A DNA stretch of 64,000 bases from Candidatus Pacearchaeota archaeon (GCA_038740375.1 JAVYLW010000004.1:28067-92066), one strand, 5' to 3'; shown: positions 5,291 to 39,813, counted from the first letter of the stretch. The notes: a model not told the origin generated them from the letters alone. Made by a program: numbers and translations.

Positions 5291-6226
5291 TTATGCTGTT
5301 ATTTTGTTTAAATTTTTTAGGTAATAACAATAAGTTCTGTCTAATCCTTCTTCTAAACTAATTGTAGGTTTCCAATCTAAGTTATTCTTTATTTTTTCAA
5401 AAGAAAAACAATTTTTTTTAATTTCTCCTTTTTTTTCAGGAAGATATATGGGTTCAAATTTATTTTTAAAGTATTTATTTATTTTTGAAAAAATTTCTAT
5501 AATATCTGTCTCTTTTCCAGAACTGACATTATAGATATTACTTTTTTTTTCTTTTAATGATAAAATTAAAGCTTTTACAGCATCTTTTACGTATAAAAAA
5601 TCTCTTGTTTGAGTTCCACCATAGATTTCAGGTTTATTGTTTTTTAGCATTTTGTTTAAAAAAATTGAAATTACACTTCCATGTTCCTCATTAATATTTT
5701 GTCTTGGTCCGTATATATTACTTAGTCTTAAAATAGTGTATTTTAAATTATATTCTTTTTTATAAAAATAAAGATATTTTTCTATTGCTAATTTTGCGCA
5801 TCCGTAAGGAGATCTAGGCTTTGTTTCATGTTCTTCATTTATTGGAGTATATTTTGGTTCTCCATAAATAGCAACAGAAGAAGAAAAAATTATATGTTTA
5901 ACATTATTATTTTTTGCTAATTCTAAAATGTTTATTGATGATAAGATATTATTTTTTGCATCTTGAATAGGATTTTCTATAGATTTTCTTAAATTAATAA
6001 GTCCAGATAAATCAAAAATAATTTCAGGTTTTTCAAATTCAAAAATCTCTTTTATTTTCTCAAAATCTTTTAAATCAGCATTATAAAAAGTTGAGCGAGG
6101 ATTTATATTTTCTATTCTTCCTGAAGATAAATTATCAATTACAATTACTTTGTTATTTTCTTTAACAAGTTCATCAACAAGATGGCTTCCTATGAAGCCT
6201 GCACCTCCGGCAACTAATATTTTCAT
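5291..6226 (-). CDS. NAD-dependent sugar epimerase/dehydratase (extended SDR, GalE/UXS-like)
   Basis: 311 aa. It has the Rossmann motif MKILVAGGAGFIGSHLV and the catalytic YxxxK in SPYGCAKLAIE. It is the last gene of a co-oriented sugar gene string. Confidence 0.8.
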   Translation of the reverse strand: MKILVAGGAGFIGSHLVDELVKENNKVIVIDNLSSGRIENINPRSTFYNADLKDFEKIKEIFEFEKPEIIFDLSGLINLRKSIENPIQDAKNNILSSINILELAKNNNVKHIIFSSSVAIYGEPKYTPINEEHETKPRSPYGCAKLAIEKYLYFYKKEYNLKYTILRLSNIYGPRQNINEEHGSVISIFLNKMLKNNKPEIYGGTQTRDFLYVKDAVKALILSLKEKKSNIYNVSSGKETDIIEIFSKINKYFKNKFEPIYLPEKKGEIKKNCFSFEKIKNNLDWKPTISLEEGLDRTYCYYLKNLNKITA

Positions 6227-6231
6227 CTTTT

Positions 6232-7602
6232 TTAAAAAATATAAATTATTTTATATAAATAATACATCATTACTCCATCAAAAGTAGCACCTGCACCTGT
6301 CATATCTCCTATGATATTTAATAATTTTGGAGAATAAACTCCTATAATTTTTTTTTGTTTTAAATAAGATTCGTCTCCAAATTCTTTTTCAAATTCTTCT
6401 TTATTTAAATTTTTAATTTTGTTACTTGCAATATTTTCAATCATTTCTTTGTTAGGATATATTCCTGATGCTAATCTATATGAAGTTGCTATCACAGAAA
6501 ATTTCAATGCTTCTTCTAATTTTTCTTTTGGTATACTTTCATATTTTCCATAAGTTTTTAGTATAGCTCCATTTGGAGAATGAACGATAAGTATCTTATT
6601 TTCATTAGTTTTTATGTTTTCGCTTTTTGCTTTTTCTTCTAAATCTTCTAATATTTCACCTATTTTTTTATTTTTATCACCATTAACTGATTCATAAAGC
6701 TGTTTAATTTCTACATCATTCATAGATGCAAAATCGCTATTTAATACTATTTCTAGATATTTTTTTCTTTTATCATTATCCTTTGGAAAATCATTTGTTC
6801 CAATGTAAATTAAGTTTGAATCTACTTTGTTTCTTATTTCTTCAATTAAATTTTTATATTCTTCAGGTTCTCCTTTGTTAAGTCCACCTATATTAATTAA
6901 GACTCTTTTATAATTTGTTCCTAATTCTTGTAAGTTCTTAAAAAAAGAGTTTCTTTGTAGTTCTGATAATTCTCTTCCTTCTGAAAAAGTTATCATTATT
7001 CTATATTTTCCTAAATAATCTTCTAGACAAAGAGTTCTAGGTTTTGCTTTAGTAATTTTATTATTTATAAAAACTGGAATTAATTCTGGATTTCTATATA
7101 AAGCATCTATGGTTGTTGAAACAAGATTTCCAACATAAAAAACATCAACGTTTTTATCTTCTTTTGAGTATTCATACATTGAAATTGTTGTTATAGCTGG
7201 ACTTCCTCCTATATTGAGATACCATTCATCTTTTGGACAATATTCGCATACTTTTTTTTCTAATATAGAAATTTCTTGGTTATTTAGTCCTTTAAATTCA
7301 GCATTATTAGTTAAACCTTTTTTAATTTCATCTAATTTTTTAGATAAATCATTATAAAATTTTTTATTGTTTTCAAATTCTTTTTTGGCAAATTCCAATA
7401 CTTCTATGATATTCTCATGACTTATTTTTACAACCTCGTCTTCACAACATTGAAGGCCTGCAGTTAATGCTGTTTTTTCACTTAATTTAATTTTTTCTTT
7501 TAATATTTCTTTAAATTTAACTTTGTATTCTTTATCTTTATTATATGTTAATGCTATTTCACTTAATTCGTTTTTTTCTTGCAATATTTTTTCTAATTCC
7601 AT
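6232..7602 (-). CDS. Ribokinase-superfamily carbohydrate kinase-like protein (ADP-dependent PFK/GK-like), atypical active-site motif
   Basis: 456 aa. It has NIGGSPAITT (GG sugar-binding motif), an NxxE-like SMNDVEIKQL and a C-terminal DMTGAGATFDG where ribokinase/PfkB proteins carry DTxGAGDxF. Its size matches ADP-dependent kinases. Its start overlaps the upstream mutase stop by 10 nt. Confidence 0.4.
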   Translation of the reverse strand: MELEKILQEKNELSEIALTYNKDKEYKVKFKEILKEKIKLSEKTALTAGLQCCEDEVVKISHENIIEVLEFAKKEFENNKKFYNDLSKKLDEIKKGLTNNAEFKGLNNQEISILEKKVCEYCPKDEWYLNIGGSPAITTISMYEYSKEDKNVDVFYVGNLVSTTIDALYRNPELIPVFINNKITKAKPRTLCLEDYLGKYRIMITFSEGRELSELQRNSFFKNLQELGTNYKRVLINIGGLNKGEPEEYKNLIEEIRNKVDSNLIYIGTNDFPKDNDKRKKYLEIVLNSDFASMNDVEIKQLYESVNGDKNKKIGEILEDLEEKAKSENIKTNENKILIVHSPNGAILKTYGKYESIPKEKLEEALKFSVIATSYRLASGIYPNKEMIENIASNKIKNLNKEEFEKEFGDESYLKQKKIIGVYSPKLLNIIGDMTGAGATFDGVMMYYLYKIIYIF

Positions 7603-9092
7603 TTTATATTTTTTACTTTGTTATTTAGCTTATTTCCCAAATCTTTTTCAATTTCATTTAATGTTTCGTATAATTGTTCATAATTTCCTAAAATTTCTTT
7701 TAAATTGTCTCCAAAAGAGATTATTGCAATTTCATTAGGATCGTTGTTTGATGCGTGAACTAGAAATTCTGTTTCATTTATTTTAAATATTGCATCATTA
7801 AAATCCTTGTATTTTTCATAACTTTTGTAATGTTCAACTATATCTTGAATTATTTTTTTATTTTCTTTTTCTGTTTTTATTCTTAACTCTTCGTGAGACT
7901 TTTTTAATCCTTTTTTTGCTTCATCTATTCTTTTCATTAATCCATCTTTTTTTTCTTTTTGAACAATTTCGTAGAATAATAGAGTTGTTTCTATTCCGTC
8001 ATCAATTCCTTCTTCGTTGTAATTATGTAAAGATATTTCAGAACCTCCTAACACAGCTCTATCTTCTTTTAATTCTAATATTTTTTCTATATGGCTAGGT
8101 CTTCCTCTTTTTACTGGAAAAATATCTATTTCATTTTTTAAATATTCATTAATCATAGCATAAAGACAATATTCTGCAACAAAAGCTGGTTTTTCTTTTC
8201 TTTTAGTATTATTTTTTTTGAATTTTTCTAATAAATATTTAGCTCTAACAGCAGTAATTATAGGAGAATCTATTAGTTCATTATTAACTGCAAGACCAAA
8301 TCTATCTCCATCTCCATCCACTATAGCGATAAAATCATAATTTTTTAATTTATTAACATCAATATTTTTCTTTAATAATTCAAAATTTACTTTTTTTAGA
8401 GGATCTGGACCTTCATTTTTATAATCCATATTAAAATAAGCATTAGGATATTGCCTTACTGCATCAAAGGAGTTTAATTTTAAGTTTGACATTATATCTT
8501 TAAAATAATGAAAAGAAATTCCTTGCATTGCATCATATAAAAAGTTTATTTTTGGACCTTTTTTTAAATGTTTAAATTTTTCTGTAATTATTTCAGAATA
8601 ATCTTTGTTTAAATTTGATTGAACGTAATATATATCTGGTTTTTTAACATTTTTCCAAGACTGTTGTATTAAACTCTCTAAATTTTTATTATTCTTTAAA
8701 ACTGAGTATTTATTTTGGAAAGCAATTTTAAAACCATTATATTCGCTTGGCTGATGTGATGCTGTTATAGTTACAGCACTTGTATTATATTTTCTTGTTG
8801 CATATTCAATTGTTTGAGTTAGATTATTATGACCTGCATCTAAAATTTTTATTTTATTTTGCAAGAATATTTTGGCTAATTTGTTCATTATATAAGGAGT
8901 GTTAATTCTTCCATCACCTGAAATTAAAATAATGTTTTGATTCTCTTCTTTTATTTTTTCAGATATTTTCTCAGAAATTTTATTTATATCTTCATCATCA
9001 ATATTTTTTTTTCTTACATCATATAATTCTAATTTTTTAGATTTCTCATAATTTCTTTTTCCTAATTCGTTAATAAATTCATTTATTTGCAT
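7593..9092 (-). CDS. Phosphoglucomutase/phosphomannomutase-family phosphohexomutase
   Basis: 499 aa. The catalytic serine loop is TITASHQPSEYNGFKI (TASHNP-type) and the metal-binding loop is AIVDGDGDRFGL. Confidence 0.8.
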   Translation of the reverse strand: MQINEFINELGKRNYEKSKKLELYDVRKKNIDDEDINKISEKISEKIKEENQNIILISGDGRINTPYIMNKLAKIFLQNKIKILDAGHNNLTQTIEYATRKYNTSAVTITASHQPSEYNGFKIAFQNKYSVLKNNKNLESLIQQSWKNVKKPDIYYVQSNLNKDYSEIITEKFKHLKKGPKINFLYDAMQGISFHYFKDIMSNLKLNSFDAVRQYPNAYFNMDYKNEGPDPLKKVNFELLKKNIDVNKLKNYDFIAIVDGDGDRFGLAVNNELIDSPIITAVRAKYLLEKFKKNNTKRKEKPAFVAEYCLYAMINEYLKNEIDIFPVKRGRPSHIEKILELKEDRAVLGGSEISLHNYNEEGIDDGIETTLLFYEIVQKEKKDGLMKRIDEAKKGLKKSHEELRIKTEKENKKIIQDIVEHYKSYEKYKDFNDAIFKINETEFLVHASNNDPNEIAIISFGDNLKEILGNYEQLYETLNEIEKDLGNKLNNKVKNIKWN

Positions 9093-9439: not shown

Positions 9440-10570
9440 TTAAGCTAAGACTACTTTTTCTATATTGTATCTTTTATTGCTGAAATATTTTTTTATTTTT
9501 TGAAATATTTCTTCACTAGGATATAATCCAAGGACAGCTCCGCTTGATCCGGGAAATTTTGCATTTGCTCCAATATTTTGAACAATTCTTATGAGTTTTA
9601 CATCTTCTTCAGGTAAAATATTTTTGTCAAGGGAAACAGAAATTTCAAAATTTTCATCTATTATTTTTCCAAGTTCATAAACATCATAATTTAATATAGC
9701 TTTTTTTGCTAATTTTGATAAATATGTTAATCTTTTCATAGCATTTATAGTTTTTTCTTCTTTTTTTCTATAAGAATCCGCTCTATTAGATAGTTCTTTA
9801 GAGGAATCATTTCCATCTCCTTTAGTGATTATGAAAAAAGGTAATTCTTTTACTGGAATTTTTTCTATTTTTGGTATAGCAGTATATCTAACTTTTCCAT
9901 TATCTTCTACTGGTTGATTTTTTAGATAAGCCTCTTTTTTTGAGTAATCTAGATGAATAACTGCTTCGTTTAGAGCTAATAAATTTTCATTTTTTGATTC
10001 GCTTTTATAAGAATCCTTTGAAAAATCCATGTAGAGAAAATCTTCATTATTTACAGTTAATGAATCTTGAGGTCCTGCAATTCTTTCTAATTCATGAGTT
10101 TCTGCATGTAAAGCCATTGCTTCAAAATCTCTTGGATGAATGTTTGTTTTATAAAATTCGTCTAATGCTCTTAAAATAGATATAGATAGTGCAGTTGAAC
10201 CTGAAAATCCACATGAGTATGGAATGTTTGATTTATATTCTAGTTTAAAAGGTTTTATATCAAAATCTATATTGTTTAATTTACAAAAGTCAAAAAAAGT
10301 TTTTATAACTGCTAAAGCTAATTTATGTTTTTCTAAACTATTGTTAAATTCTTTTGTCGGAAATAATGCAAATATCTTTTTAAGTAAATTAATATTTTTA
10401 ATCTTTAGAATACTTTTATAATTCTTTAAAATAAATTTATTAGAACTTTTTATTGTAGATTCTGTTTTAAAGTTTAAAAAGCAAGCAGATATGCAACTGC
10501 CCCAAAAACCATCAGAAGGATTTCCTGCTATTGATATTCTAGGATATGCTATTTTTTTAATCATTTTCAA
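9440..10570 (-). CDS. GHMP-family sugar kinase, glucuronokinase-like
   Basis: 376 aa. GHMP motif 2 is NIPYSCGFSGSTALSISIL and motif 3 is AKFPGSSGAVLGLY. RISIAGNPSDGFWG, IAGPQD and YMDFSKD resemble the plant glucuronokinase subgroup as I remember it. Confidence 0.65.
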   Translation of the reverse strand: MKMIKKIAYPRISIAGNPSDGFWGSCISACFLNFKTESTIKSSNKFILKNYKSILKIKNINLLKKIFALFPTKEFNNSLEKHKLALAVIKTFFDFCKLNNIDFDIKPFKLEYKSNIPYSCGFSGSTALSISILRALDEFYKTNIHPRDFEAMALHAETHELERIAGPQDSLTVNNEDFLYMDFSKDSYKSESKNENLLALNEAVIHLDYSKKEAYLKNQPVEDNGKVRYTAIPKIEKIPVKELPFFIITKGDGNDSSKELSNRADSYRKKEEKTINAMKRLTYLSKLAKKAILNYDVYELGKIIDENFEISVSLDKNILPEEDVKLIRIVQNIGANAKFPGSSGAVLGLYPSEEIFQKIKKYFSNKRYNIEKVVLA

Positions 10571-11600
10571 ATTTTTTTATATTTTTAGATATGTACATAT
10601 TATATAGTCTATCTTCAAAATTACAATTTTTACATTTTGTGTATTTTTTTAAGTTGTCTCTGATAATTTTAGTTTTTTTCCATAATTTTTTAAATGACAT
10701 AAAATTATGAATATTTTCGAGAAAATATGTAGCATGGAAGTTTGGTTGAGCTTGAAGACAACAAGGAAATACATTTCCATGCATATCTATTGCTATTCTT
10801 TTATATGAAACAAAACATCCATATTTTGATATATTTGGTAAAAATCTTTCTTCAAATCTAGGATTAATATAAAAGTTTTTATCATTATATTTTTCTACGA
10901 GATTTCTTAAGATACGTTCTAATTTTTTAGATTTTTTCTTTTTTTTAATTATGTCATTTTTTATTTCTATTAAATTTATTCCTAGATTTTTCGCTCTTTT
11001 AATTGTATATTCTAAATCTTTGCTACATTCATTAATTAACATTAAACTTATTCCAGTTATTTTATTTTTCCCTGTTCTTAATTTGGTTAATTTTTTTAAA
11101 TTATTTATGACCCTCTCTAAAAATTTTTTGTTTACACCTCTTATTTTTGTATAATTTTCAACTTTAAAGCTGTCTATACTGATTCTTATTTCTTTAAGGT
11201 TGAATAAAATGTTTTTGTTTAAATTATTTATATAATATCCGTTTGTGATCAGTCTTGTTTTAAAATTTAATTTTATTGAAAAATCTAATATTTTTGATAT
11301 ATCTTTATATAACAGAGGTTCTCCGCCTCCTGAAAATGAAATTTTTTTTATATTAAGTTTTTTAAATTCTTTTAAAAGTTCGAATATTTCAGAAGTTTTT
11401 AGAATTTTATTTTTGTTTTTTTGTTTGAATTTGTTATATTTGTTGGATTTATTGAAACAATAAATGCATTTAGAATTACATTTGTCTGTAAGATGAAACT
11501 CTACTGTATCTGGATAAGGATCGTTCCTTATTATATTATCTATTTTTTTTTGAAACTGTTTTTCAATATTGTATAGATTTGCAATTTTTATTTTTTCCAT
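10557..11600 (-). CDS. Radical SAM enzyme with C-terminal auxiliary Cys cluster (twitch/SPASM-like)
   Basis: 347 aa. The Cx3Cx2C motif is in LTDKCNSKCIYCFNK and a GGEP motif is in SFSGGGEPLLY. C-terminal cysteines are GCF..x18..PCC and CKNC. It overlaps ino1 by 38 nt and the kinase gene by 14 nt. Confidence 0.8.
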   Translation of the reverse strand: MEKIKIANLYNIEKQFQKKIDNIIRNDPYPDTVEFHLTDKCNSKCIYCFNKSNKYNKFKQKNKNKILKTSEIFELLKEFKKLNIKKISFSGGGEPLLYKDISKILDFSIKLNFKTRLITNGYYINNLNKNILFNLKEIRISIDSFKVENYTKIRGVNKKFLERVINNLKKLTKLRTGKNKITGISLMLINECSKDLEYTIKRAKNLGINLIEIKNDIIKKKKKSKKLERILRNLVEKYNDKNFYINPRFEERFLPNISKYGCFVSYKRIAIDMHGNVFPCCLQAQPNFHATYFLENIHNFMSFKKLWKKTKIIRDNLKKYTKCKNCNFEDRLYNMYISKNIKKFEND

Positions 11601-12684
11601 ATTTTTTTATAAAATTTTCAAAATCTTCTTTTGATTTTTCATCTGTTTTTTGAATTGGAGGATGTTTAAATGCAAAAGAACATATATCATATAATGGTCC
11701 TTTTAATCCTGAATCCATTGCAATTTTAACAGCTCTTATAACATCTATCATTACACCTGCACTGTTTGGACTATCTTCAACACTTAGTTTTAGTTCGAGA
11801 GTAACCGGAGCATTTCCAAAATTTTCACCTTCTATTCTTATATAACATATCTTATTGTCTTTTTGCCATGGAATATAGTCACTTGGACCTATGTGTATAT
11901 TATTTTTTTCTAATCTTTGTTTTAACTGACTTTGAACTGATTCAGTTTTGCTAATCTTTTTTAAACCTAATCTTTCTTTTGCTAGCATGTTTAAAAAATC
12001 AGTATTTCCTCCAAAATTTAATTGATACGTTCTTAATATTTTGACACCTCTTGATTCAAATAAATGGACTAAAACTCTATGCAAAATTGTTGCTCCGATT
12101 TGAGCTTTTATATCGTCACCAGCACAAATTAAACCTTTTTTTTCAAATTTTTCAGCCCAATTACTATCAGAGCAAATAAATACAGGCATTGCATTTATAA
12201 AAGCGGTGTTTGATTCTAAACATGCATTAGCATAATACTCTACTGCTTTTTGTGAACCAACCGGAAGATAACATATTAACATGTCTGGTTTTATTTTTCT
12301 TAAAACCTCTTTGACATTTACAGGTTTTTCATCTGATTCTACAAATCTTTCATTTTCAGGATATTCTAACATATGTTTCGAAAATCCGTCTAATGTTGGA
12401 CCTCTATTTACAATTACATTTGTCTTTGGAATTTTATGTACTAAATTTAATGTGTTATTAGGTTTAGCATATATAGCTTCACTTAAATCAAAACCTACTT
12501 TTCTTTTGTCAATATCAAAAGCAGCTACAACTTCTATGTCTTTTATTTCATATTCACCTATTTTTGTGTGAAGAATACCTGGAATTATTTCATTTGGATT
12601 TATGTTTTTATATAAATGTAAACCTTGTATAAGACTGCTAGCACAATTTCCTATACCTGCTAGAGCTATTTTGATTTTCTTCAT
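11563..12684 (-). CDS. ino1: myo-Inositol-1-phosphate (inositol-3-phosphate) synthase
   Basis: 373 aa. KIALAGIGNCASSLIQGL, VVAAFDIDKRKVGFDLSEAIYAKPNN and the overall layout match the actinobacterial/archaeal Ino1 type as I recall it (VGNCASSLVQG, AAFDVD.KKVG.DL..AI). Confidence 0.85.
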   Translation of the reverse strand: MKKIKIALAGIGNCASSLIQGLHLYKNINPNEIIPGILHTKIGEYEIKDIEVVAAFDIDKRKVGFDLSEAIYAKPNNTLNLVHKIPKTNVIVNRGPTLDGFSKHMLEYPENERFVESDEKPVNVKEVLRKIKPDMLICYLPVGSQKAVEYYANACLESNTAFINAMPVFICSDSNWAEKFEKKGLICAGDDIKAQIGATILHRVLVHLFESRGVKILRTYQLNFGGNTDFLNMLAKERLGLKKISKTESVQSQLKQRLEKNNIHIGPSDYIPWQKDNKICYIRIEGENFGNAPVTLELKLSVEDSPNSAGVMIDVIRAVKIAMDSGLKGPLYDICSFAFKHPPIQKTDEKSKEDFENFIKKYGKNKNCKSIQY

Positions 12685-12871
12685 TAAATAATTAATTTAA
12701 AAATGTGTTATATTATTTATCAATATTTTTAATAATTAGAAATATTGAATATATATTTTGTTTTTATTAAGAAATTCTTTTAATTAATAGATAAACTATT
12801 TTTATTTAGAATTTAGTTATCTAATAGATTAATAAATATTGATAATAGAATTTTTTTATAAAAATTATTTT

Positions 12872-13030
12872 TTAAATCTTTAACAAAAAATTCAGGCCTT
12901 TTTAAAGGGAAGATGAATTGCATTATGATTAAAGAGCAATGAAATATATAGAGAGTCAAGAAATACACCATAATCTTATTTTTAGGCTAATAAGGATAGC
13001 TATTCCCTTTAGTTGACAGAAGATGTCGTT
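12872..13030 (+). mobile_element. MITE-like repeat, copy 2 of 4
   Basis: TTAAATCTTTAACAAAAAATTCAGGCCTTTTTAAAGGGAAGATGAATTGCATTATGATTAAAGAGCAATGAAATATATAGAGAGTCAAGAAATACACCATAAT...GGCTAATAAGGATAGCTATTCCCTTTAGTTGACAGAAGATGTCGT is collinear with the other copies. Confidence 0.6.
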
Positions 13031-13046
13031 TAAAAAAATGTAATAA

Positions 13047-13675: not shown

Positions 13676-14674
13676 ATGAAAAGAAAAATTATTAAGCAGG
13701 GGCATAATACTCTAACAATAACTTTGCCAACAGAGTGGACAAGGAAACTTAATCTTTCCGCAGGAGACGAAGTTGATTTAGTGGAAGATGGCGGTTGTTT
13801 ATGTATAAACGGAAAACAACGTAACGGATTTAAATCTACTACTATTGATATTACAGGATTTACAGTTCCTTTAATATGGAGATATTTTCAATCTGCATAT
13901 AGAGAAGGTTGTGATGAAATTATATTGAAATATGATAAAAATCAAAAAGATTATGAAAATGTTTACAATTTTTATGCTTCTCATTTTGAATATGCTCGAT
14001 TTGGAGAAAAACCTTTGAAAAAACCTGCTTTAGAAACTATAACAGACCTTGTTAATAGATTTATTAATGTGGAAATAATTGAACATGGAGAAGGTTATTG
14101 TATTATTAGAGAAATGGGTGAAATTTCAAGTAAAGAGTTTGATAATTCCTTAAGAAGAATCTTTTTATTGTTATTAGATTTATTTGATAAAATTATAAGT
14201 TTAATAAAGGAAAATAAAATAGGAGATATAAGAATATGCAAGACAATACATGCTATGGATATTAATATTGATAGGTTTATTGATTATTGTTGTAGGATAA
14301 ATAATAAAATTAAAGACTCTAGTTTTCAAAAAAATAAACCAATAATGTTTTCTACACTATTTTTATTAGAATTGTTAGGAGATGAGTTTAAGTATATAGG
14401 TGCTCATCTTGCAAGATCTCATAAAAAAATTGATGAAGTATTGCCTTTTGCTGAGAAAGTTAAAGAGCATTTTGAAATGTATTATCATTTATTTTATAAG
14501 TTTAATAGAGAATCTGAAATACAAATAGGATTAAATGACTTAAAAATTTATAACGAACATTTTAAATGGAAAGATTCTAAGAATAAAGATGCTAATAGTA
14601 TTAGGCAACATCTTATGCAGATTTCTAAATTTACATGGTGCCTTAATGAACTTAGAATTGAAATGGAGTTTTAA
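13676..14674 (+). CDS. AbrB/SpoVT-type DNA-binding domain fused to PhoU-like domain (archaeal phosphate-uptake-regulator-like)
   Basis: 332 aa. The N-terminal swapped-hairpin motif is RKIIKQGHNTLTITLPTEWTRKLNLSAGDEVDLVEDGG. It is followed by a helical repeat region of PhoU-like size. This architecture is common in archaea (COG0704-like). Confidence 0.65.
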   Translation: MKRKIIKQGHNTLTITLPTEWTRKLNLSAGDEVDLVEDGGCLCINGKQRNGFKSTTIDITGFTVPLIWRYFQSAYREGCDEIILKYDKNQKDYENVYNFYASHFEYARFGEKPLKKPALETITDLVNRFINVEIIEHGEGYCIIREMGEISSKEFDNSLRRIFLLLLDLFDKIISLIKENKIGDIRICKTIHAMDINIDRFIDYCCRINNKIKDSSFQKNKPIMFSTLFLLELLGDEFKYIGAHLARSHKKIDEVLPFAEKVKEHFEMYYHLFYKFNRESEIQIGLNDLKIYNEHFKWKDSKNKDANSIRQHLMQISKFTWCLNELRIEMEF

Positions 14675-16106: not shown

Positions 16107-19100
16107 ATGAATAAAAAGGGGTTAAATAAAATAATTAGTATTATTATTCTTTCTTTTGTTTTTTCAATTTTAGGTATATTAATCATTTATAGTATAATTG
16201 CAATATTCACAAAAAAAGGAAAAGAAGAAACAAAATTAGAACCTATATTAATTGATTTAGATATTCAAAGTGCTTATATAAATAAAAATAATGATACTGC
16301 TATTATTTCTGTTACAAGAACAGGAGAAGGACAAATAAATAAACTAAAATTTATTTTTAATGATAAAAACGGTGTTTCTTATATATATGAATATCCTTAT
16401 GCTGAAGGTTTTCCTAAAGAAGATGAAAAAAAGATTTATGAAATAAAATCCTATTTTATTCCGGGACTTAAAGATTTTTCAAAAATAATTACTGTTTCTA
16501 TAGCTTTTACAGTTTTAACTGAAAGTGGAAATGAATTAACTAGTATAATAAAGGATACTTTTGGAAAACCTCCTGAAGATATAAGAGACCCTAAGAATAA
16601 TTTATCTAGAAATACTCCTATAGTAGTTGGAAGTGGAAGTAGTGGTACTAGTGGAGGAGATGCATCATTTATAGAATGCGTTCCTAATTGTTTAGGAAAA
16701 GAATGTGGAAATGATGGATGTGGAGGAATATGTCCTCCTGGATGTTCTTCTAATGAAATCTGTAATAATGGAAAGTGTAGTTTATTCTTGTCAAATAATT
16801 TAAAAGATATGAATAAATATGATTCTAAAGAATTATTTTTAGTTTCTGATAATGATTGGAAAAAAGTTTTGCCATATATTCCTTTATCAGTCTGGAGTGG
16901 AAATGAAAATTGTCAAAGAGGAACTAACACTCCTAAAAATGTTTGTGTTTATCCTATGTTAATTTATCATGGTGAAAATGATTTTAATATACCTAATACT
17001 CCTTCTTATGAAATTTCAGATTCTGTTTATTCTTTGTTTGGAAAATCATTAGTAAGAATATACCTAGATAATAATTCAATTAAAGATTTTTTAAAAAATG
17101 ATTTAGATATAGTTTCTATTAAAGATAGTTATATAGATGTTGTTATTTCAGATTCTCAAAGGAGATATTATGAAAATAAAGGTTATCATCTTGAAATATT
17201 GCCTGTAACATTACCAAAATTTAATAATTTTGGAAATGATGCTAATTTTTCAGCATATCATACTTATGAGAGTATGGTTAATGAATTAAATTCTATTCAA
17301 CAAAATTATTCTTCTATTGCTAAAGTTTATGTTATTGGAAAATCAATTCAAGGAAGAAATATTTATGGAGTAAAAATATCTGATAATGTTGGAATTAAAG
17401 AAAATGAAACTAGAATACTTATTACGGGTAATCATCATGCAAGAGAAATAATCAGCGTTGAAGTTCCTATGTATATGATAAATTATTTAACTAAAAATTA
17501 TTATTTAAATGAAAAAATTAAAAAAATTGTTGATAATTATGAGTTTTGGTTTGTTCCAATGGTTAATCCTGATGGACATATTATGGTAGAAAAAGGAAAT
17601 CTATGGTGGAGAAAAAATTTAAGGGATAATAATAACAATAATGTAGTTGATGATTATGATGGCGTTGATTTAAACAGAAATTATGGTTATACTTGGGGTT
17701 ATGATGATATAGGTTCTAGTCCAAATTTTTATTCAGAGACTTATAGAGGCACAAAAGCTTTTTCAGAGCCTGAGACTTATGCTATATATAATTTATCTAT
17801 TCAAAACAATTTTTCTTATGTGTTTGATTATCATTCTTATGGAGGATTTATAATTTATCCTTGGGGTCATATAAATTCTTTAACTCCTGATGATAGTCTA
17901 TTTTATAATTTATCAAATAATTTTAAGGTTTATTTAAAAGGATATAATTCTGGCACGATATGTCAAATTTTTGGATATTCAAATGGAGATAGTATTGACT
18001 GGCATTATGGAGATCAAACAAATAAAAGCAAATCAATTGCATTTGGGATAGAGTTAGATTCATCTAATTTTATTCCTCCTTCAAGTGAAATTCTTCCAAT
18101 CTGTAAGAAAAATTTAGCAATGTTACTAAATTTTACAGGATATAATGTTCCAATAGTTAAAGATGCTAATGTAGATATTGATTCTGTTATTTATTTTATG
18201 CAACAATATTCTCCAAACAGACTAACGATTTTAGGCGATACTTCACAAGAAATTGATAATTTGCTTATTGCAAGTCCTCCTGTTGGAGCTGGATTAAATA
18301 TAAGTAAAATAAGAAGAATAAGTGAAGATAACTATTTGAATTACTGGTTAAATTATAGTGATATAATTTATGTTGAAGATAATTATGAAATTGCTTTAGT
18401 AGCCTCAAGTTATGCTTCTTTGATTAATTCTCCATTAATCATTAAAGGAAGTAATTTAGATAAAAATCAAACATTTAATGGAAAGAATGTCATATGTATT
18501 GGAAATATAAGTGGCGAATCTTCAAAGTATTGTTCTATAAAATATGATTTAAAAACTTTGCAAGATGTATACTTAAATTTAACTAAGACAAAAAAAATAA
18601 TTTTAGTTAATCCTGATGATTGGGATATATCTTTATCTGGAAACTTAAAAACTATGAGAACTGCTGGAATTGTTAGAAACCTTTACACCAAAAATTCATT
18701 GATTGCTCCTATTCTTGCAGCTTCAAAACATGAACTGATACTAACAAATGCTTCAAATAATTTACTTGTTTATGACAAATTAATAGAAGATTTTTTTAAT
18801 AGTAATTATAATGAAACAATAACTGAATGTAAATATATAGACTCATGTTCAAGTGGTTTTGATAATAAAAGTTTAAATATGAAAGGTGTTAAAGAAAAAA
18901 TAACCTTTTTTATAAAAACTCTTCCAGATATATTTCCTTATTATATTATTCCTTATGAAGGAAAAGTTAATAAAAAAACTGAATTGAAAATAGGTGTTAA
19001 GAATATTGGTTTTAATGTTTCTAAAAATTGTAGTGTGAGATTATATTTAGTGAATGATTCTAAAGAATTAATACTTATAGGAATGCAAAATTTAGGAGAT

Positions 19101-21206
19101 ATAAACGAAAATGAAGTTAAAGAAGCTGTAATAAACTTAACTTTTGAAAAAGCTGGTTACAAAAAATTATATATAAATGTTTCAACAGATTCTAAAGAAT
19201 TAGATGAAGAAAATAATTTTGAATTTTTTTCTTTTGAAGTTAAAGAACCTTCTCCAGATGTAGAGATCACAGGGCCTGCTTATTTATACATGAAAATAAA
19301 TTCTGCAAATTATTTTAATATAAGTATTTTTAATAATGGTGAAATTCAAACAGGAAAATTTAATTTAAGCTTAATGTATTATAATAATAGTATTATTTAT
19401 GAAAAAGAAATATTAAATCTTAATCCTGGTGAAAATAAATCAGTTCAATTTGAATTTAATCCTAAGGAAATAAAAACATATTATCTTATAGTTTATGCAC
19501 AAGTAACTAATGATTATTATCTGAAGGATAACTATCATTCTATAAAAATATTTGTAACGAGTAGTTTTGAAGATAATTCTATAAATAACAATGATACGTT
19601 CTTTTATAAAAATATCTCTGTTAACGAAAAAACAAAGAATAATTACAAGGTATATGAAAATAAAAGCATTTTTGATTATATTGAACAACCTTATTATTAT
19701 ATTTATCTGAATGGTTTTTTTTATAATTGTAGTAAAGATTTTGTTATTGTAAACATATATTTTAATAATGAACCTCTAGGATATAAAAAGGTATCTTGTT
19801 ATAATGATCTTCCTAGAAATAATTATTCTGAATATTTAGGAGGTTATCCTCATTATTTTTTAAGAAATATAACTTTTGAATTTAATGGTAGTTTAATATT
19901 TCATAATGAAAGCAATATGATGTATTTTTATAAAGATTCTGAATTGTTATTGTCATTTTCAAAAGAAGAAAGCTCTGGAGTTTTAAACATTCCTATTTTA
20001 ATTTCAGGATGGACTTTAAATGAATCTAGTTTTTATGTTCAAAATAAGAATTATAGCACAATCATTGTTAATATAAAAGAATTAGACATATATAATAAAA
20101 CAGATTTTGATGTTTATTTGAACGGGCAATTTATAGGTTTATTAGATTTAAGAAATTCTAATGGAGACAAATCAAAGGAATTTTTAATACCTGAAAATTT
20201 AAAGAAAAGTTCATACCTTAATATAAGTTTAAAACCAAATGGTTCAAATTTTTATATAGCTAATGTTAAGTTAAAAACTGATTTTGACGACTACTATCTT
20301 ACAATTATAGGAAGTCCTGAATCTATTCCTAATGAACAATATTATGAAGACTATTATAGTTATTATGAATCTGATTTTAGAGAACTTGGAGATATTGATA
20401 AAGATAATGAAGGAGAGTTTTCTGTCGGAAGAATCTTTGGATTATCAAGTTCAGATGTTTCTTCATATTTAGCGAGAGTTTTGTTTTATGATAAAATTAC
20501 TAAAAAAAGTGGAGGAACTTTTATGATGGTTGGAGATGGATATACTCAAAGAATTCCATTAATGGAATGTAACAAAAGTTTTTGTAGCTGTTATTTCGAT
20601 GTAGAATGTCCTCAAATATTTAATAGATACAAAAACTATTTTTATCCTTTTGAAAATTGTAATCAAGATTTAATAGATGGCAAAGCACAAGATTATGGAA
20701 CAAGCGATTGTGAAAATGTTAACAGATTAAAGAATAACATATTATTTAATTCAAGCATGACTGCTTACGCAGGTCATGCTGGATTAGAAGGGTGGGATAT
20801 TGATTATAGAATGATGAAAACAAATGAATTAATAGAGATTCCTCCTATGTTTAATTATGCATTCGGATGTGCATCATGCTCTTTTAGAGAAGCTTCTTAT
20901 TACTCTTCTTATTACCCTGGTAGTCTTGAAAACTTGTTTTGTGCTAATATTATTAGAAAAGGTTCTATAGGATATCAAGGTGCTGTTGAAAATATGTATG
21001 GAAATCATTTCTTAAACGAAATATTTGATGAGATTCTCATAAATAACAAATCAATAGGATATGCATTTAAAGTAGCAAAAAATAAAGAAAGAAGATATGA
21101 TTGGGAAACACCTCTTTTGCCTAATTATGCTCAATATAGAGACCTTTTTGGAATTCATGATACATTAATTGGGGATCCGACATTTATCGGAAAATTTGGA
21201 AAATGA
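16107..21206 (+). CDS. Giant membrane-anchored surface protein: Cys-rich module + M14 zinc carboxypeptidase domain + CARDB-like repeats + C-terminal C25/gingipain-like cysteine peptidase domain
   Basis: 1699 aa with an N-terminal TM helix (IISIIILSFVFSILGILIIYSIIAIF). The Cys-rich module is ECVPNCLGKECGNDGCGGICPPGCSSNEICNNGKCS (about nt 16670-16790). The M14 domain (about nt 17250-18150) has YHTYESMVNEL, ITGNHHAREIIS (HxxE), MVNPDGH and FGIELD. CARDB-like segments include LKIGVKNIGFNVSKNCSVRLYL. The C-terminal region (about nt 20290-21206) has the His/Cys dyad context AYAGHAGLEGW and NYAFGCASCSF. Confidence 0.7.
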   Translation: MNKKGLNKIISIIILSFVFSILGILIIYSIIAIFTKKGKEETKLEPILIDLDIQSAYINKNNDTAIISVTRTGEGQINKLKFIFNDKNGVSYIYEYPYAEGFPKEDEKKIYEIKSYFIPGLKDFSKIITVSIAFTVLTESGNELTSIIKDTFGKPPEDIRDPKNNLSRNTPIVVGSGSSGTSGGDASFIECVPNCLGKECGNDGCGGICPPGCSSNEICNNGKCSLFLSNNLKDMNKYDSKELFLVSDNDWKKVLPYIPLSVWSGNENCQRGTNTPKNVCVYPMLIYHGENDFNIPNTPSYEISDSVYSLFGKSLVRIYLDNNSIKDFLKNDLDIVSIKDSYIDVVISDSQRRYYENKGYHLEILPVTLPKFNNFGNDANFSAYHTYESMVNELNSIQQNYSSIAKVYVIGKSIQGRNIYGVKISDNVGIKENETRILITGNHHAREIISVEVPMYMINYLTKNYYLNEKIKKIVDNYEFWFVPMVNPDGHIMVEKGNLWWRKNLRDNNNNNVVDDYDGVDLNRNYGYTWGYDDIGSSPNFYSETYRGTKAFSEPETYAIYNLSIQNNFSYVFDYHSYGGFIIYPWGHINSLTPDDSLFYNLSNNFKVYLKGYNSGTICQIFGYSNGDSIDWHYGDQTNKSKSIAFGIELDSSNFIPPSSEILPICKKNLAMLLNFTGYNVPIVKDANVDIDSVIYFMQQYSPNRLTILGDTSQEIDNLLIASPPVGAGLNISKIRRISEDNYLNYWLNYSDIIYVEDNYEIALVASSYASLINSPLIIKGSNLDKNQTFNGKNVICIGNISGESSKYCSIKYDLKTLQDVYLNLTKTKKIILVNPDDWDISLSGNLKTMRTAGIVRNLYTKNSLIAPILAASKHELILTNASNNLLVYDKLIEDFFNSNYNETITECKYIDSCSSGFDNKSLNMKGVKEKITFFIKTLPDIFPYYIIPYEGKVNKKTELKIGVKNIGFNVSKNCSVRLYLVNDSKELILIGMQNLGDINENEVKEAVINLTFEKAGYKKLYINVSTDSKELDEENNFEFFSFEVKEPSPDVEITGPAYLYMKINSANYFNISIFNNGEIQTGKFNLSLMYYNNSIIYEKEILNLNPGENKSVQFEFNPKEIKTYYLIVYAQVTNDYYLKDNYHSIKIFVTSSFEDNSINNNDTFFYKNISVNEKTKNNYKVYENKSIFDYIEQPYYYIYLNGFFYNCSKDFVIVNIYFNNEPLGYKKVSCYNDLPRNNYSEYLGGYPHYFLRNITFEFNGSLIFHNESNMMYFYKDSELLLSFSKEESSGVLNIPILISGWTLNESSFYVQNKNYSTIIVNIKELDIYNKTDFDVYLNGQFIGLLDLRNSNGDKSKEFLIPENLKKSSYLNISLKPNGSNFYIANVKLKTDFDDYYLTIIGSPESIPNEQYYEDYYSYYESDFRELGDIDKDNEGEFSVGRIFGLSSSDVSSYLARVLFYDKITKKSGGTFMMVGDGYTQRIPLMECNKSFCSCYFDVECPQIFNRYKNYFYPFENCNQDLIDGKAQDYGTSDCENVNRLKNNILFNSSMTAYAGHAGLEGWDIDYRMMKTNELIEIPPMFNYAFGCASCSFREASYYSSYYPGSLENLFCANIIRKGSIGYQGAVENMYGNHFLNEIFDEILINNKSIGYAFKVAKNKERRYDWETPLLPNYAQYRDLFGIHDTLIGDPTFIGKFGK

Positions 21207-36932: not shown

Positions 36933-37053
36933 GGAAAAAATATTATACTAAGATTTATAAAACTTAGTTATTTTCTGAAAAATTTTTATTAAAAATATCT
37001 AAATATATTTTTTTAAATTTAATTTATTAATCAAAATATTAAAAATCAATATT

Positions 37054-37659
37054 TTAAATAGAGTCTATTTCTTCTAATGTGGGGATTATATCTTGAAATT
37101 TTGATATTATTTTAAATGGATTTCCAATATACAGTCTTTCTTTTTCATGATATCCGAAGTCTACTGCAATCGTTCTTATATTAAGTTTATTTGCTTCTAA
37201 AATATCTCCTAACGTGTCTGTAATAAATACTATTTCATTTGATGATACATTATAATCTTGCATAACTATTTTAAATTTTTCAATTTTTGATTTGTGAATA
37301 TCAGATCCATAAACAAAGGAAAAAACATTTATTCTATTATTTTTTATATAAGTATTTATTCCTTTACTTTTTCCAGAAGAGATTATTCCAAGAATATATT
37401 CTTTTGATAATTTAATAAGCTCTTCTCTAATTTCAGGCTTTATTATTAATTTTTCCCTTAGATTATCCATACTTTCAGAAACATCAAAACCAGTATCTCT
37501 ATGTCTTAATTTTTCTTTTTGTTCATGAAGATTACCATCGTATAATTTTTTGTGTTCTTCTTTTGTTAAACCTAAAAATTGTTTTTGAAATAATTCAAAA
37601 TTTTGTTCATATGTGTCTTCTATTACACCATCATAATCAAAAACAATTACCTTTATCAT
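37054..37659 (-). CDS. HAD-superfamily hydrolase (phosphatase-like)
   Basis: 201 aa. HAD motif I is VIVFDYDGVIEDT, motif II is GIISSG and motif IV is FITDTLGD. It lies between uvrC and uvrB. Confidence 0.75.
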   Translation of the reverse strand: MIKVIVFDYDGVIEDTYEQNFELFQKQFLGLTKEEHKKLYDGNLHEQKEKLRHRDTGFDVSESMDNLREKLIIKPEIREELIKLSKEYILGIISSGKSKGINTYIKNNRINVFSFVYGSDIHKSKIEKFKIVMQDYNVSSNEIVFITDTLGDILEANKLNIRTIAVDFGYHEKERLYIGNPFKIISKFQDIIPTLEEIDSI

Positions 37660-37910
37660 ATTAAATATCTTTACTTAATTTTACTAAACTTATATTTTAA
37701 TTTGATTATTTAAATCTGTTAAATGAGGTTTAAGATATCCTATTCTTTATCTCTGTAAATAGTCTATAAATAGTCTACAAATAGAGACTTATTTAAATAA
37801 TTTTTCATTAACATTTAAAATAAATCAAAAAAATGGTATAATTTTTTAATGGTTTAGATAACTTTTTATATGTACTTTTTTCAAATAATATTTATTCTAA
37901 ATCTAAAAAA

Positions 37911-39482: not shown

Positions 39483-39527
39483 AATTTTCGTAATAAAAAT
39501 CTATAATTTTAAAATATGTACATCTTA

Positions 39528-39810: not shown

Positions 39811-39813
39811 AAA

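Follow-up and report, generated by a model that had tools for sequence, protein, structure and literature searches.

A radical SAM gene coupled to a divergent glucuronokinase-family kinase gene and adjoined by ino1 within a Candidatus Pacearchaeota sugar-phosphate island

Organization of the locus

The window analysed here, a 64-kb stretch of DNA (64,000 nt) from an uncultivated Candidatus Pacearchaeota archaeon (DPANN), carries three physically interlocked minus-strand genes, an arrangement proposed in a first-pass annotation and confirmed by the open reading frames (ORFs) and their junctions. These are ino1 (11563..12684), which encodes a 373-aa inositol-3-phosphate synthase (MIPS) of the mycobacterial type; a gene for a 347-aa radical SAM (rSAM) enzyme with a C-terminal Twitch-type auxiliary-cluster domain, from a near-orphan family (10557..11600); and a gene for a 374-aa GHMP kinase that belongs to a divergent DPANN subfamily of the glucuronokinase family (9440..10564, counted from ATG 10564). 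Reading of the sequence places the rSAM start at ATG 11600, with the ino1 stop codon (TGA, 11563) 38 nt within the rSAM ORF, as had been annotated, and the rSAM stop codon (TAA) at 10557. The rSAM and kinase genes do overlap as well, but not by the 14 nt originally given, a value that assumed a start at TTG 10570, to which the full kinase ORF (9440..10570, minus strand) extends. Because the NCBI kinase protein (P0065; 374 aa, N-terminus MIKKIAYPR) and its homologues share a start position corresponding to ATG 10564, this is most likely the start codon, which shortens the overlap to 8 nt (ATGATTAA).

Neighbouring genes often overlap in this compact genome, which indicates co-transcription rather than a shared pathway; 5 of the 32 same-strand neighbour pairs in the window do so, among them BacA and a methyltransferase-like gene unrelated to it (19 nt), and the 38 nt shared by ino1 and the rSAM gene represent the largest overlap. 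The three genes are best explained as a single predicted transcription unit within a sugar-phosphate metabolism island. The 362-nt AT-rich region 5' of ino1 (12685..13046, minus strand) is presumed to be the promoter region of the trio; an Rfam search of this region returned no family, and its sole ORF is a hydrophobic one of 52 aa. A gene for a regulator with an AbrB/MazE-type N-terminal domain (13676..14674, plus strand; Pfam MazE_antitoxin, 2.3e-08) lies in divergent orientation.

Downstream of the kinase gene, a 347-nt gap is followed by three further minus-strand genes, as previously described. The first (7593..9092) encodes a 499-aa phosphohexomutase-like protein of the PGM/PMM family (Pfam PGM_PMM_I/II/III; motifs TASHQP and DGDGDR) and lies in the predicted second transcription unit of this region; at four related loci (L008, L013, L095, and L096) it is found as a pair with the gene for a 456-aa protein. 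In the window, the latter gene (6232..7602), earlier called PfkB-like, appears to encode a divergent ADP-dependent sugar-kinase-like member of the ribokinase superfamily, with conserved motifs IGGSPAI, NDxE, and TGAGATFDG. The third gene (5291..6226) encodes a 311-aa GalE-like SDR NAD-dependent epimerase/dehydratase (Pfam Epimerase, 1.2e-60; 196 bits against TIGR01179 galE, under the cut-off of 262). A regex search and Pfam sweep across the 64-kb window found no nucleotidyltransferase, inositol monophosphatase (IMPase), or glycosyltransferase, in agreement with the earlier annotation, and no CDP-alcohol transferase or myo-inositol oxygenase (MIOX); the Pfam sweep also detected no homologues of IolG, IolE, IolD, or IolB.

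Assignment of the three encoded proteins

Judged by sequence similarity, the ino1 product is a bona fide inositol-3-phosphate synthase, as first annotated. It matches Pfam Inos-1-P_synth (2.9e-36; PF01658, 124 bits versus a cut-off of 27) and aligns over its full length (residues 3-359) with Mycobacterium tuberculosis Ino1 (1GR0; 400 bits, E 8e-119), with which it shares the blocks GNCASSL, GDDIK.Q.GAT, QLN.GGN.DF, and SPNSAG, while the five-membered cyclitol-phosphate synthase 6K96 scores just 186 bits. The protein falls below the NCBIfam TIGR03450 equivalog cut-off (447 versus 638 bits), a lineage-specific threshold for INO1 of the mycothiol lineage.

The kinase is, on sequence grounds, a member of the glucuronokinase family. 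The motifs on which this placement originally rested (RISIAGNPSD, PYSCGFSGSTA, IAGPQD, YMDFSKD, and KFPGSSGAV) were all found in the translation, and sequence comparison upheld the protein as a GHMP kinase of the glucuronokinase (GlcAK) branch; its Pfam match is to GHMP_kinases_N (PF00288, 9.1e-11), and alignment of residues 2-349 with "glucuronokinase 1 [Ziziphus jujuba]" gives 112 bits (E 1e-32, 26% identity), versus at most 25 bits (24.6) for the mevalonate, heptose-phosphate, and galacto-kinases in the PDB, where no solved glucuronokinase structure was found. Homologues carry the JGI annotation "glucuronokinase". Members of the DPANN subfamily (P0066-P0073; 45-52% identical) are characterized by an insert of ~35 aa, by AGPQD instead of AGLQD, and by the lack of GYYGG. 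Glucuronokinase-family enzymes are known to phosphorylate sugars at the anomeric hydroxyl and, as expected for an anomeric kinase, the canonical bacterial homologue P0087 overlaps an NTP_transferase gene; the family profile also retrieves NTP_transferase-kinase fusions, and such fusions of the glucuronokinase type have been described (PMC3938481). By contrast, the DPANN subfamily is accompanied by a phosphohexomutase and glycolytic genes, with no partner nucleotidyltransferase in either the 64-kb window or the other subfamily loci, which argues against a uronate-1-phosphate product.

The rSAM enzyme carries C41NSKC45IYC48 (CX3CX2C) and GGGEP (residues 91-95) and matches Pfam Radical_SAM (1.2e-19; PF04055, 71.5 bits versus a cut-off of 29.5) as well as SPASM (2.6e-07); the previously listed motifs CNSKCIYC and GC..PCC..CKNC are both present in the translation. 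In all four family members the pattern C262-x12-G275-x4-C280(C281)...C323-x2-C326 is invariant, with five conserved Cys, and there is no further Cys motif. The AF2 model (pLDDT 86.9) contains a beta-hairpin at residues 268-278, followed by helices. Pattern and modelled hairpin together correspond to a Twitch domain with a single auxiliary cluster, defined by CX9-15GX4C around a beta-hairpin and a later Cys pair, without the CX5CX3C...C of a full SPASM domain (PMC6231123). Close relatives among 5.8 billion proteins comprise P0002 (48% identity) and P0003/P0004 (about 35%) and no others, and no NCBIfam model of a curated family reaches its cut-off.

Function within the SPASM/Twitch subfamily is not readable from similarity (PMC6231123). 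Foldseek ranked SuiB, DesII, BlsE, SkfB, PqqE, MoaA, viperin, and BtrN with little separation (11-19% identity), a set that includes the sugar-acting enzymes DesII, BlsE, and BtrN (E 1e-13 to 1e-9). Identification as BtrN (2-deoxy-scyllo-inosamine dehydrogenase) itself was rejected (no BtrN chain among PDB matches at E<=0.01; Foldseek rank 21, TM 0.42/0.57, 14% identity), as was identification as viperin (87 bits against NF038283, whose cut-off is 180, with only profile positions 3-148 of 281 aligned). While SuiB, SkfB, and PqqE are among the top Foldseek matches and weak NCBIfam matches to maturases were found, the chance that the protein is a SPASM/Twitch maturase of RiPPs or an enzyme-activating maturase is close to negligible, as every maturase model was 5- to 10-fold under its cut-off, Pfam and the AF2 model place the beginning of the radical SAM core by residue ~30 with no RiPP-recognition domain ahead of it, the flanks contain no credible small precursor ORF, and the conserved neighbours are small-molecule kinases. 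The initial impression that this is not an obvious peptide maturase was thus borne out.

Sequence matches of the rSAM core raise another alternative, in which a nucleotide's ribose is the target of viperin- or MoaA-like chemistry, as is probable for the kinase-coupled relatives of the enzyme, with the GHMP kinase and MIPS being mere neighbours or the kinase handling a pentose derivative. At the sequence level the core indeed scores best against viperin (87-88 bits) and next against MoaA (about 80 bits), "viperins associated with kinases" (pVip, 88 bits) is the top PADLOC model, and relatives of the rSAM gene are located beside dTMP-kinase- or dNK-like genes and SAM synthetase. We nevertheless consider this reading distinctly unlikely; the pVip match covers the N-terminal core only (positions 5-148 of 262) and the Twitch domain stands in place of the NTP-binding C-terminal half, MoaA has a cluster ligated by three Cys that leaves an iron site open (PMC9012708) as opposed to five conserved Cys here, and the conserved pairing is with a sugar kinase.

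Conservation of the gene pair and a proposed kinase-coupled module

A test of whether the trio is conserved in related genomes had been suggested, and such conservation was found in part. The rSAM/kinase adjacency recurs at the locus of the only close rSAM relative (L006), where the rSAM gene lies directly upstream of a kinase of the same subfamily (48% and 60% identity for the rSAM enzyme and the kinase, respectively). The gene upstream of the rSAM gene at L006 is not ino1, but an ADP-kinase-like gene (a homologue of the gene for the 456-aa protein), and no MIPS/ino1 gene was present in any related locus recovered (up to 21 kb in length, in some cases about 2 kb); the proposed link of ino1 to the pair is therefore seen in this window only. 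The rSAM type shared by the window and L006 (rSAM-A) has this kinase subfamily as its neighbour in each of the two genomes where it occurs, even though the sequences have diverged by about 50% and the flanks differ, and at L012 a non-orthologous second rSAM gene precedes the kinase gene. Since the rSAM family has four members, conservation of the adjacency is documented by a single independent close relative and an analogous case. Six of the nine kinase-subfamily loci lack an rSAM gene, and the slot upstream of the kinase gene varies (rSAM-A, rSAM-B, GAPDH-like, HEAT, or DUF362 plus a small ORF) within a recurring DPANN sugar-phosphate island of regulator, phosphohexomutase, ADP-kinase-like gene, variable slot, and kinase. 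Regulator homologues beside the island show 63-72% identity at L007 and L013 and 30-33% at L008, L012, and L095; a regulator homologue is also present at the P0068 locus.

These data bear on the possibility that inositol supply, an unrelated rSAM function, and sugar salvage have simply been squeezed into one transcript of a streamlined genome. Overlaps are frequent and involve unrelated genes, the MIPS adjacency is peculiar to this window, and the slot upstream of the kinase gene is variable; however, the occurrence of rSAM-A beside the kinase subfamily in two of two genomes despite divergence, and of a second, unrelated rSAM gene in the same slot at L012, make coincidental packing rather unlikely. 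The evolutionarily coupled core is best explained as two genes, encoding the Twitch rSAM enzyme and the translationally coupled, divergent glucuronokinase-family kinase, and we tentatively propose, at somewhat under an even chance, that they form a kinase-coupled rSAM module with a phosphorylated sugar or cyclitol as candidate substrate.

In the proposed module, the kinase would supply or consume a phosphorylated hexose-like or cyclitol ring, the rSAM enzyme would cleave SAM at its CX3CX2C cluster, the resulting 5'-deoxyadenosyl radical would take a hydrogen from a ring carbinol carbon, and the auxiliary [4Fe-4S] cluster, for which the conserved Cys would be enough for full ligation, could shuttle an electron. 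The outcome may be oxidation to a ketone (BtrN-like), epimerisation, in which the extra conserved Cys281 could donate a hydrogen, or elimination of a beta-hydroxyl (viperin/DesII-like). Relatives of the rSAM gene at 30-35% identity adjoin genes for nucleoside or nucleotide kinases; a dTMP-kinase-like gene overlaps the related rSAM gene at L001-L003 and a dNK-like gene follows it at L024, while the related rSAM genes at L004 and L005 have no kinase neighbour. Because of this association, kinase first and rSAM enzyme second is the more likely order, and the analogy suggests that the kinase feeds the rSAM enzyme rather than the reverse. Such relatives are also found near SAM synthetase, and, of 80 distant relatives of the rSAM enzyme, about 20 lie near GalE-like SDRs. 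Ino1 would convert glucose-6-phosphate, for which the neighbouring mutase and ADP-kinase-like protein are potential sources, to inositol-3-phosphate; its attachment to the rSAM/kinase pair appears to be genome-specific, and it may provide a cyclitol substrate or merely be co-transcribed.

A more specific reading is that the rSAM enzyme oxidises, epimerises, or dehydrates the MIPS product or free inositol with the ring left intact, the kinase acting before or after, to yield a modified cyclitol phosphate (e.g., a solute or head-group precursor). The close co-transcription, with the largest overlap in the window, the BtrN-like Twitch architecture with sufficient Cys for a fully ligated cluster, and the adjacent glucose-6-phosphate-supplying enzymes are all consistent with such tailoring; BtrN has a four-Cys auxiliary cluster and catalyses the two-electron oxidation of a cyclitol (PMC9012708). 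This reading is nevertheless unlikely, given that MIPS does not co-occur at the other loci recovered, that no downstream cytidylyltransferase, phosphatase, or transferase is encoded within the 64 kb, and that BtrN is not a close relative.

An oxygen-free route from inositol to a uronate is unsupported, and we regard it as very unlikely. MIPS would here produce inositol-3-phosphate, the rSAM enzyme would catalyse an O2-independent ring opening as a functional analogue of MIOX, and the kinase would phosphorylate the uronate or a related sugar at C1. The order of the three overlapping genes, the genuine glucuronokinase-family membership of the kinase, the absence of MIOX from the window, and the use of a cyclitol by BtrN, a Twitch rSAM enzyme, fit this idea. 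On the other hand, converting inositol to glucuronate requires a four-electron cleavage of the ring, for which we know of no rSAM precedent, and there is no positive evidence of inositol ring cleavage; MIPS is missing at all related loci recovered, including the orthologous rSAM/kinase pair at L006; a nucleotidyltransferase for uronate-1-phosphate, fused or adjacent in the canonical family, is not found; the kinase subfamily departs from canonical GlcAK in its motifs and ~35-aa insert; and the phosphohexomutase that accompanies it would be unable to use a C6 carboxylate. As only the rSAM/kinase pairing recurs in relatives, the pathway stays an idea.

Comparison with known systems

Archaeal ADP-dependent glucokinases and phosphofructokinases resemble the 456-aa protein in length and in a ribokinase-type NxxE-like motif and a GAG anion-hole motif, and they account for its top 17 Foldseek matches (E 1e-7 to 3e-5; AF2 model of moderate confidence, pLDDT 67.6); by contrast, this protein has no Pfam or PDB sequence match, including to the PF04587 signature, and the Asp that normally follows GXG is replaced by Ala or Ser (TGAGATFDG). 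The bacterial Iol pathway (IolG/E/D/B/C/J), which converts myo-inositol to 5-deoxy-glucuronate independently of O2 and uses a ribokinase-superfamily kinase, demonstrates that a uronate-like acid can be reached from inositol without oxygen; it contains, to our knowledge, no radical SAM enzyme, and its IolG, IolE, IolD, and IolB have no counterparts detected in the window. Eukaryotes oxidise myo-inositol to UDP-glucuronate through MIPS, IMPase, MIOX, glucuronokinase, and UDP-sugar pyrophosphorylase (PMC3938481). The Pacearchaeota locus likewise combines a genuine MIPS and a genuine glucuronokinase-family member, but its 64-kb window lacks MIOX, IMPase, and pyrophosphorylase, and its kinase is divergent, with an insert and altered motifs.

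The rSAM enzyme shares with BtrN (4M7T), DesII (8HZY), and BlsE (7VOB) the CX3CX2C motif and one auxiliary site (CX12GX4C ... CX2C), and its model reproduces their beta-hairpin followed by a helix; identity across the structural matches is low, however, with none to BtrN by sequence, and RiPP maturases reach equal structural scores. Its core is most similar to that of pVip (PADLOC PDLC02904, NCBIfam NF038283), although only the N-terminal half of that profile is matched, under the NCBIfam cut-off of 180, and a Twitch domain takes the place of the C-terminal NTP-binding part. In both systems the rSAM gene is associated with a kinase, which in Pacearchaeota is a translationally coupled GHMP sugar kinase, while relatives of this rSAM gene are coupled to dTMP-kinase- or dNK-like genes.

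Organization and genomic setting of the gene trio

The three interlocked minus-strand genes described in the first-pass annotation, which encode an inositol-3-phosphate synthase (ino1; 11563..12684 (-)), a radical SAM enzyme of 347 aa (10557..11600 (-)) and a GHMP kinase (9440..10564 (-)), were all found as claimed, and the ino1 stop codon (TGA 11563) indeed lies 38 nt inside the radical SAM ORF, which starts at ATG 11600. An overlap between the radical SAM gene (stop 10557) and the kinase gene also exists, but its length is 8 nt (ATGATTAA) instead of the 14 nt first proposed; the kinase ORF is also readable from TTG 10570, but both the deposited kinase (374 aa, MIKKIAYPR...) and all homologues have their N-terminus at ATG 10564. 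All of the amino acid motifs previously quoted for these proteins are present. As also described, the kinase gene is followed, after a 347-nt gap, by genes for a PGM/PMM mutase (7593..9092 (-)), a 456-aa protein (6232..7602 (-)) and an SDR (5291..6226 (-)), which form a second tight unit in which the first two genes overlap by 10 nt and the last two are 5 nt apart. A 362-nt AT-rich stretch lies 5' of ino1; an Rfam search identified only five tRNAs, and no riboswitch in either the 362-nt or the 347-nt gap. Neither regex matching nor a Pfam sweep across the whole window detected any MIOX, IMPase, nucleotidyltransferase, CDP-alcohol transferase or glycosyltransferase.

The source genome is compact and belongs to a DPANN archaeon that has not been cultivated. 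The G+C content of the window is approx. 23%, and a 117-kb contig of a Candidatus Pacearchaeota archaeon MAG at NCBI (locus tags QXW97_02610, QXW97_02620) encodes proteins with 100% identity to the radical SAM enzyme, to the kinase and to the 456-aa protein. Archaeal markers in the window include replication factor C subunits, the p30 subunit of RNase P and an Rpb7-like subunit, and on this otherwise clearly archaeal contig a gene for a 314-aa sigma-70-like protein (44736..45680 (-); regions 2 [3.8e-09] and 4 [6.3e-08], and weakly region 3) was unexpected for a DPANN archaeon. Other genes encode a probable giant surface protein of 1699 aa (16107..21206 (+)), in which a hydrophobic segment at the N-terminus is combined with CARDB repeats and a zinc carboxypeptidase M14 domain (3.5e-68); a SAM synthetase MetK (61660..62820 (+)) of the bacterial type, not the archaeal PF01941 type; a complete UvrABC set (34974..42630 (-)); and an Elp3-like radical SAM plus GNAT protein (53490..54878 (+)).

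Family placement of the synthase and the kinase

The ino1 product matched Pfam Inos-1-P_synth (2.9e-36) and aligned with Mycobacterium tuberculosis inositol-3-phosphate synthase 1GR0 at 400 bits (E 8e-119; residues 3-359, with long identical blocks), whereas its match to the five-membered cyclitol-phosphate synthase 6K96 reached just 186 bits, which confirms its initial identification as a genuine MIPS and places it in the mycobacterial type.

With regard to the kinase, Pfam identified the GHMP N-terminal domain alone, NCBIfam gave weak matches to mevalonate, heptose-7-P and galacto-kinases with no family assigned, and no GHMP kinase in the PDB scored >25 bits. Among its homologues, P0066-P0073 (45-52% identity) form a tight DPANN subfamily and P0074-P0090 (24-29%) a wider set, and several members of both are named glucuronokinase by JGI. 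A profile of both sets matched 854 cluster representatives at E<=1e-30, including a plant protein that NCBI and UniRef list as glucuronokinase 1, to which the window kinase aligns over its full length (112 bits, E 1e-32), as well as many proteins of ~620-660 aa that begin with an NTP_transferase domain, i.e., the fused NTP_transferase-kinase architecture of animal glucuronokinases (PMC3938481). At a bacterial locus (L101:5058-12589), the gene for a canonical glucuronokinase homologue is overlapped by a separate NTP_transferase gene and adjoined by a TRAP transporter; the same operon also carries a 3-keto-disaccharide-hydrolase-like gene and genes for a GFO/IDH/MocA oxidoreductase and an AP_endonuc_2 (IolE/IolI-like) protein, and may serve to import and activate an acidic sugar or cyclitol derivative. 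A scan of GTDB genomes with the kinase-family alignment yielded two loci only. The profile matches, the plant alignment and the NTP_transferase fusions and neighbour therefore place the kinase in the glucuronokinase family, as had been surmised from its motifs. The DPANN subfamily nevertheless differs from canonical glucuronokinases in that AGPQD replaces AGLQD, the GYYGG block is absent, ~35 extra residues are inserted after MDFSK, and its loci have no nucleotidyltransferase partner. Glucuronate thus cannot be assumed to be its substrate.

A Twitch-type radical SAM enzyme with few relatives

The radical SAM enzyme carries the motifs C41x3C45x2C48 and GGGEP and a C-terminal Cys set (C262-x12-G275-x4-C280(C281) ... 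C323-x2-C326) that is invariant in all four family members. Twitch domains consist of the first half of a SPASM motif plus one Cys pair and bind one auxiliary cluster (PMC6231123), and the Cys pattern of the window enzyme is of this kind. With five conserved Cys, full ligation of the auxiliary cluster would be possible. The ligands of BtrN, which we take to be C169/C187/C232/C235, have a spacing that resembles that of the window enzyme. The full Cys ligation predicted here would resemble that of BtrN, whose fully ligated auxiliary cluster is thought to take up an electron in a two-electron aminocyclitol oxidation (PMC9012708).

No NCBIfam model matched the enzyme at cut-off; the best models were viperin (87 bits against a cut-off of 180, with just the N-terminal half matched), a tungsten-cofactor maturase family and MoaA, and PDB sequence matches agreed with this picture. 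Foldseek comparison of a confident AF2 model (pLDDT 86.9) returned SuiB, DesII, BlsE, SkfB, PqqE, MoaA, viperins and BtrN, barely separated from each other; BlsE had the best target-normalised TM (0.70), and sugar-acting and peptide-acting relatives were not separable. Similarity is no guide to function in the SPASM/Twitch subfamily (PMC6231123). A role as peptide maturase, to which a RiPP precursor gene nearby would have pointed, seems extremely improbable, and a small-ORF search found no such precursor. While the top PADLOC model was 'viperins associated with kinases', the match covered the core only, and membership in a defence system was rejected since the pVip matches were partial.

The family is almost an orphan: a search of 5.8 billion proteins found a single relative with 48% identity and two more with ~35%. 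A JGI metagenome scan with the radical SAM alignment yielded no relative above 31% identity, because its patterns were generic radical SAM motifs, and the relatives found had no GHMP, MIPS, PGM or 456-aa gene nearby. The relatives at ~35% identity lie in a cassette (L001:188-4946; also L002-L005). In that of P0003, the radical SAM gene is overlapped by a dTMP-kinase-like gene, whose product at L001 weakly matches the PADLOC model VakA, and is accompanied by genes for an archaeal-type SAM synthetase, for a 392-aa protein similar to the AlaRS catalytic domain and for a Peptidase_S51/GATase protein; P0004 has the same cassette minus the kinase. GcpE/LytB also occur on the contigs that carry these cassettes. 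The arrangement has the look of a cassette, so far uncharacterised, for nucleotide modification or aminoacyl-nucleotides. Downstream of a metagenomic relative with 30% identity (L024), a dNK-like kinase and methyltransferases are encoded. A nucleotide substrate for the window enzyme, whose partner is a glucuronokinase-family kinase, appears very improbable to us. Approx. 20 of 80 more distant relatives have GalE-like SDRs and a second radical SAM gene nearby. Across these relatives, a radical SAM gene beside a small-molecule kinase or sugar-nucleotide enzymes is a recurring theme.

Conserved neighbourhood and candidate reactions

On a 2-kb contig (L006), a homologue of the 456-aa gene is followed by the 48% radical SAM relative and then by a kinase-subfamily homologue (60% identity to the window kinase across the 40 residues present); hence the radical SAM and kinase pair is kept across ~50% divergence with a different upstream gene. 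Of the proposed trio, this pair is thus conserved in a relative, but ino1 occurs in none of the related loci recovered (<=21 kb each). Five of 32 same-strand neighbour pairs in the window overlap, including BacA and an unrelated methyltransferase-like gene, so overlap shows co-transcription and not a shared pathway; that the trio is merely co-transcribed is a reading that we consider unlikely, and conservation of the pair speaks for a closer relationship of these two genes.

At a second locus (L012:5277-6497 (+)), a different radical SAM protein (406 aa, 19% identical, similar C-terminal Cys spacing) is encoded directly upstream of the kinase, and at a third (L013:3666-4742 (+)) a divergent type I GAPDH/E4P-dehydrogenase-like protein; elsewhere the preceding position holds a HEAT protein gene (L008), a small ORF either with DUF362 (L098) or without it (P0068 locus), or nothing related (L007, L009). 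The slot 5' of the kinase thus holds a redox enzyme at four loci (the window-type radical SAM enzyme twice, the unrelated one and the GAPDH/E4P-dehydrogenase-like protein once each), which could mean that non-orthologous enzymes replace one another in an oxidoreductase step. A presence matrix identified a recurring island of an AbrB/MazE-type regulator, an AsnC regulator, a PGM-like mutase, the 456-aa gene, this variable slot and the kinase, which makes the trio part of a sugar-phosphate metabolism island and, with MIPS missing from the related loci, ino1 a lineage-specific addition. The regulator, a ~330-aa protein with an AbrB/MazE N-terminal domain (13676..14674 (+)), recurs at L007, L013, L012, L008 and L095; its copies at L007 and L013 are 63-72% identical to that of the window, i.e., better conserved than the neighbouring enzymes, and an AsnC-type regulator is often alongside.

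The 456-aa gene and the divergent PGM/PMM mutase, neither with an NCBIfam family assigned, are paired in five DPANN loci, near GPI, ROK, FBA, TIM or GAPDH-like genes. Since the 456-aa protein had no PDB sequence match (and no Pfam match), its structure was predicted; the top 17 structural matches of the model were all archaeal ADP-dependent glucokinases or phosphofructokinases. Its modelled fold appears to resemble these enzymes, but the catalytic Asp of GXGD is replaced (TGAGATFDG), and the protein could prove to be a glycolytic or pentose-phosphate kinase not yet recognised as such.

We tentatively favour a kinase-coupled Twitch radical SAM module with a phosphorylated carbohydrate-like ring as its substrate. 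The gene structure, family placements, cluster motifs and synteny are shown by the data above; the substrate class, step order and chemistry we infer as follows. The kinase would make (or, less probably, consume) a phosphorylated species, from which the 5'-deoxyadenosyl radical would abstract a carbinol hydrogen; the auxiliary cluster would then handle the electron, leading to oxidation, epimerisation or beta-elimination, with Cys281 as a possible hydrogen donor for epimerisation. That the ring is the MIPS product and is tailored as a cyclitol we regard as quite unlikely; ino1 overlaps the radical SAM gene in the window and is missing from the related loci. It is improbable that the radical SAM enzyme converts the MIPS product or free inositol, independently of O2, into a new compound (a uronate-like acid formed by ring opening, or a novel cyclitol arising by oxidation, epimerisation or deoxygenation) that the glucuronokinase-like enzyme then phosphorylates. 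Ring-opening to a uronate, as the first-pass annotation envisaged, is highly improbable, although the kinase family would fit: MIPS does not co-occur with the radical SAM and kinase pair in the related loci recovered, a nucleotidyltransferase is absent, the associated mutase would be unable to use a C6-carboxylate sugar, and a four-electron ring cleavage would be needed, for which we know of no radical SAM precedent. The evidence for an O2-independent equivalent of inositol oxygenase consists of the gene order of one genome, and that for a new pathway of this gene order plus one conserved gene pair.

The trio, at present an uncharacterised operon of an uncultivated organism, the DPANN kinase subfamily and the radical SAM clade had no description in the literature searched, which yielded nothing relevant on radical SAM plus MIPS plus GHMP, archaeal glucuronokinase, DPANN or Pacearchaeota plus inositol, or viperin plus sugar kinase; the pairing of a Twitch radical SAM enzyme with a glucuronokinase-family kinase is likewise unreported there. 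Bacteria possess an O2-independent route from inositol to 5-deoxyglucuronate, the Iol pathway, and oxygen independence alone would therefore not be new. An O2-independent conversion of inositol would represent a previously unknown anaerobic cyclitol pathway in DPANN archaea, and with a uronate-like product the radical SAM enzyme would be a functional analogue of MIOX. Carbohydrate-acting Twitch radical SAM enzymes form a short list, mostly from antibiotic pathways. Activity of the radical SAM and kinase pair on a sugar or cyclitol phosphate would extend this list to primary metabolism in an archaeal host and define a function for the glucuronokinase-like subfamily conserved in DPANN sugar-phosphate islands. 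Taken with the relatives that are coupled to nucleotide kinases, such activity would suggest a general design in which a kinase feeds a radical SAM enzyme, extending beyond viperins.
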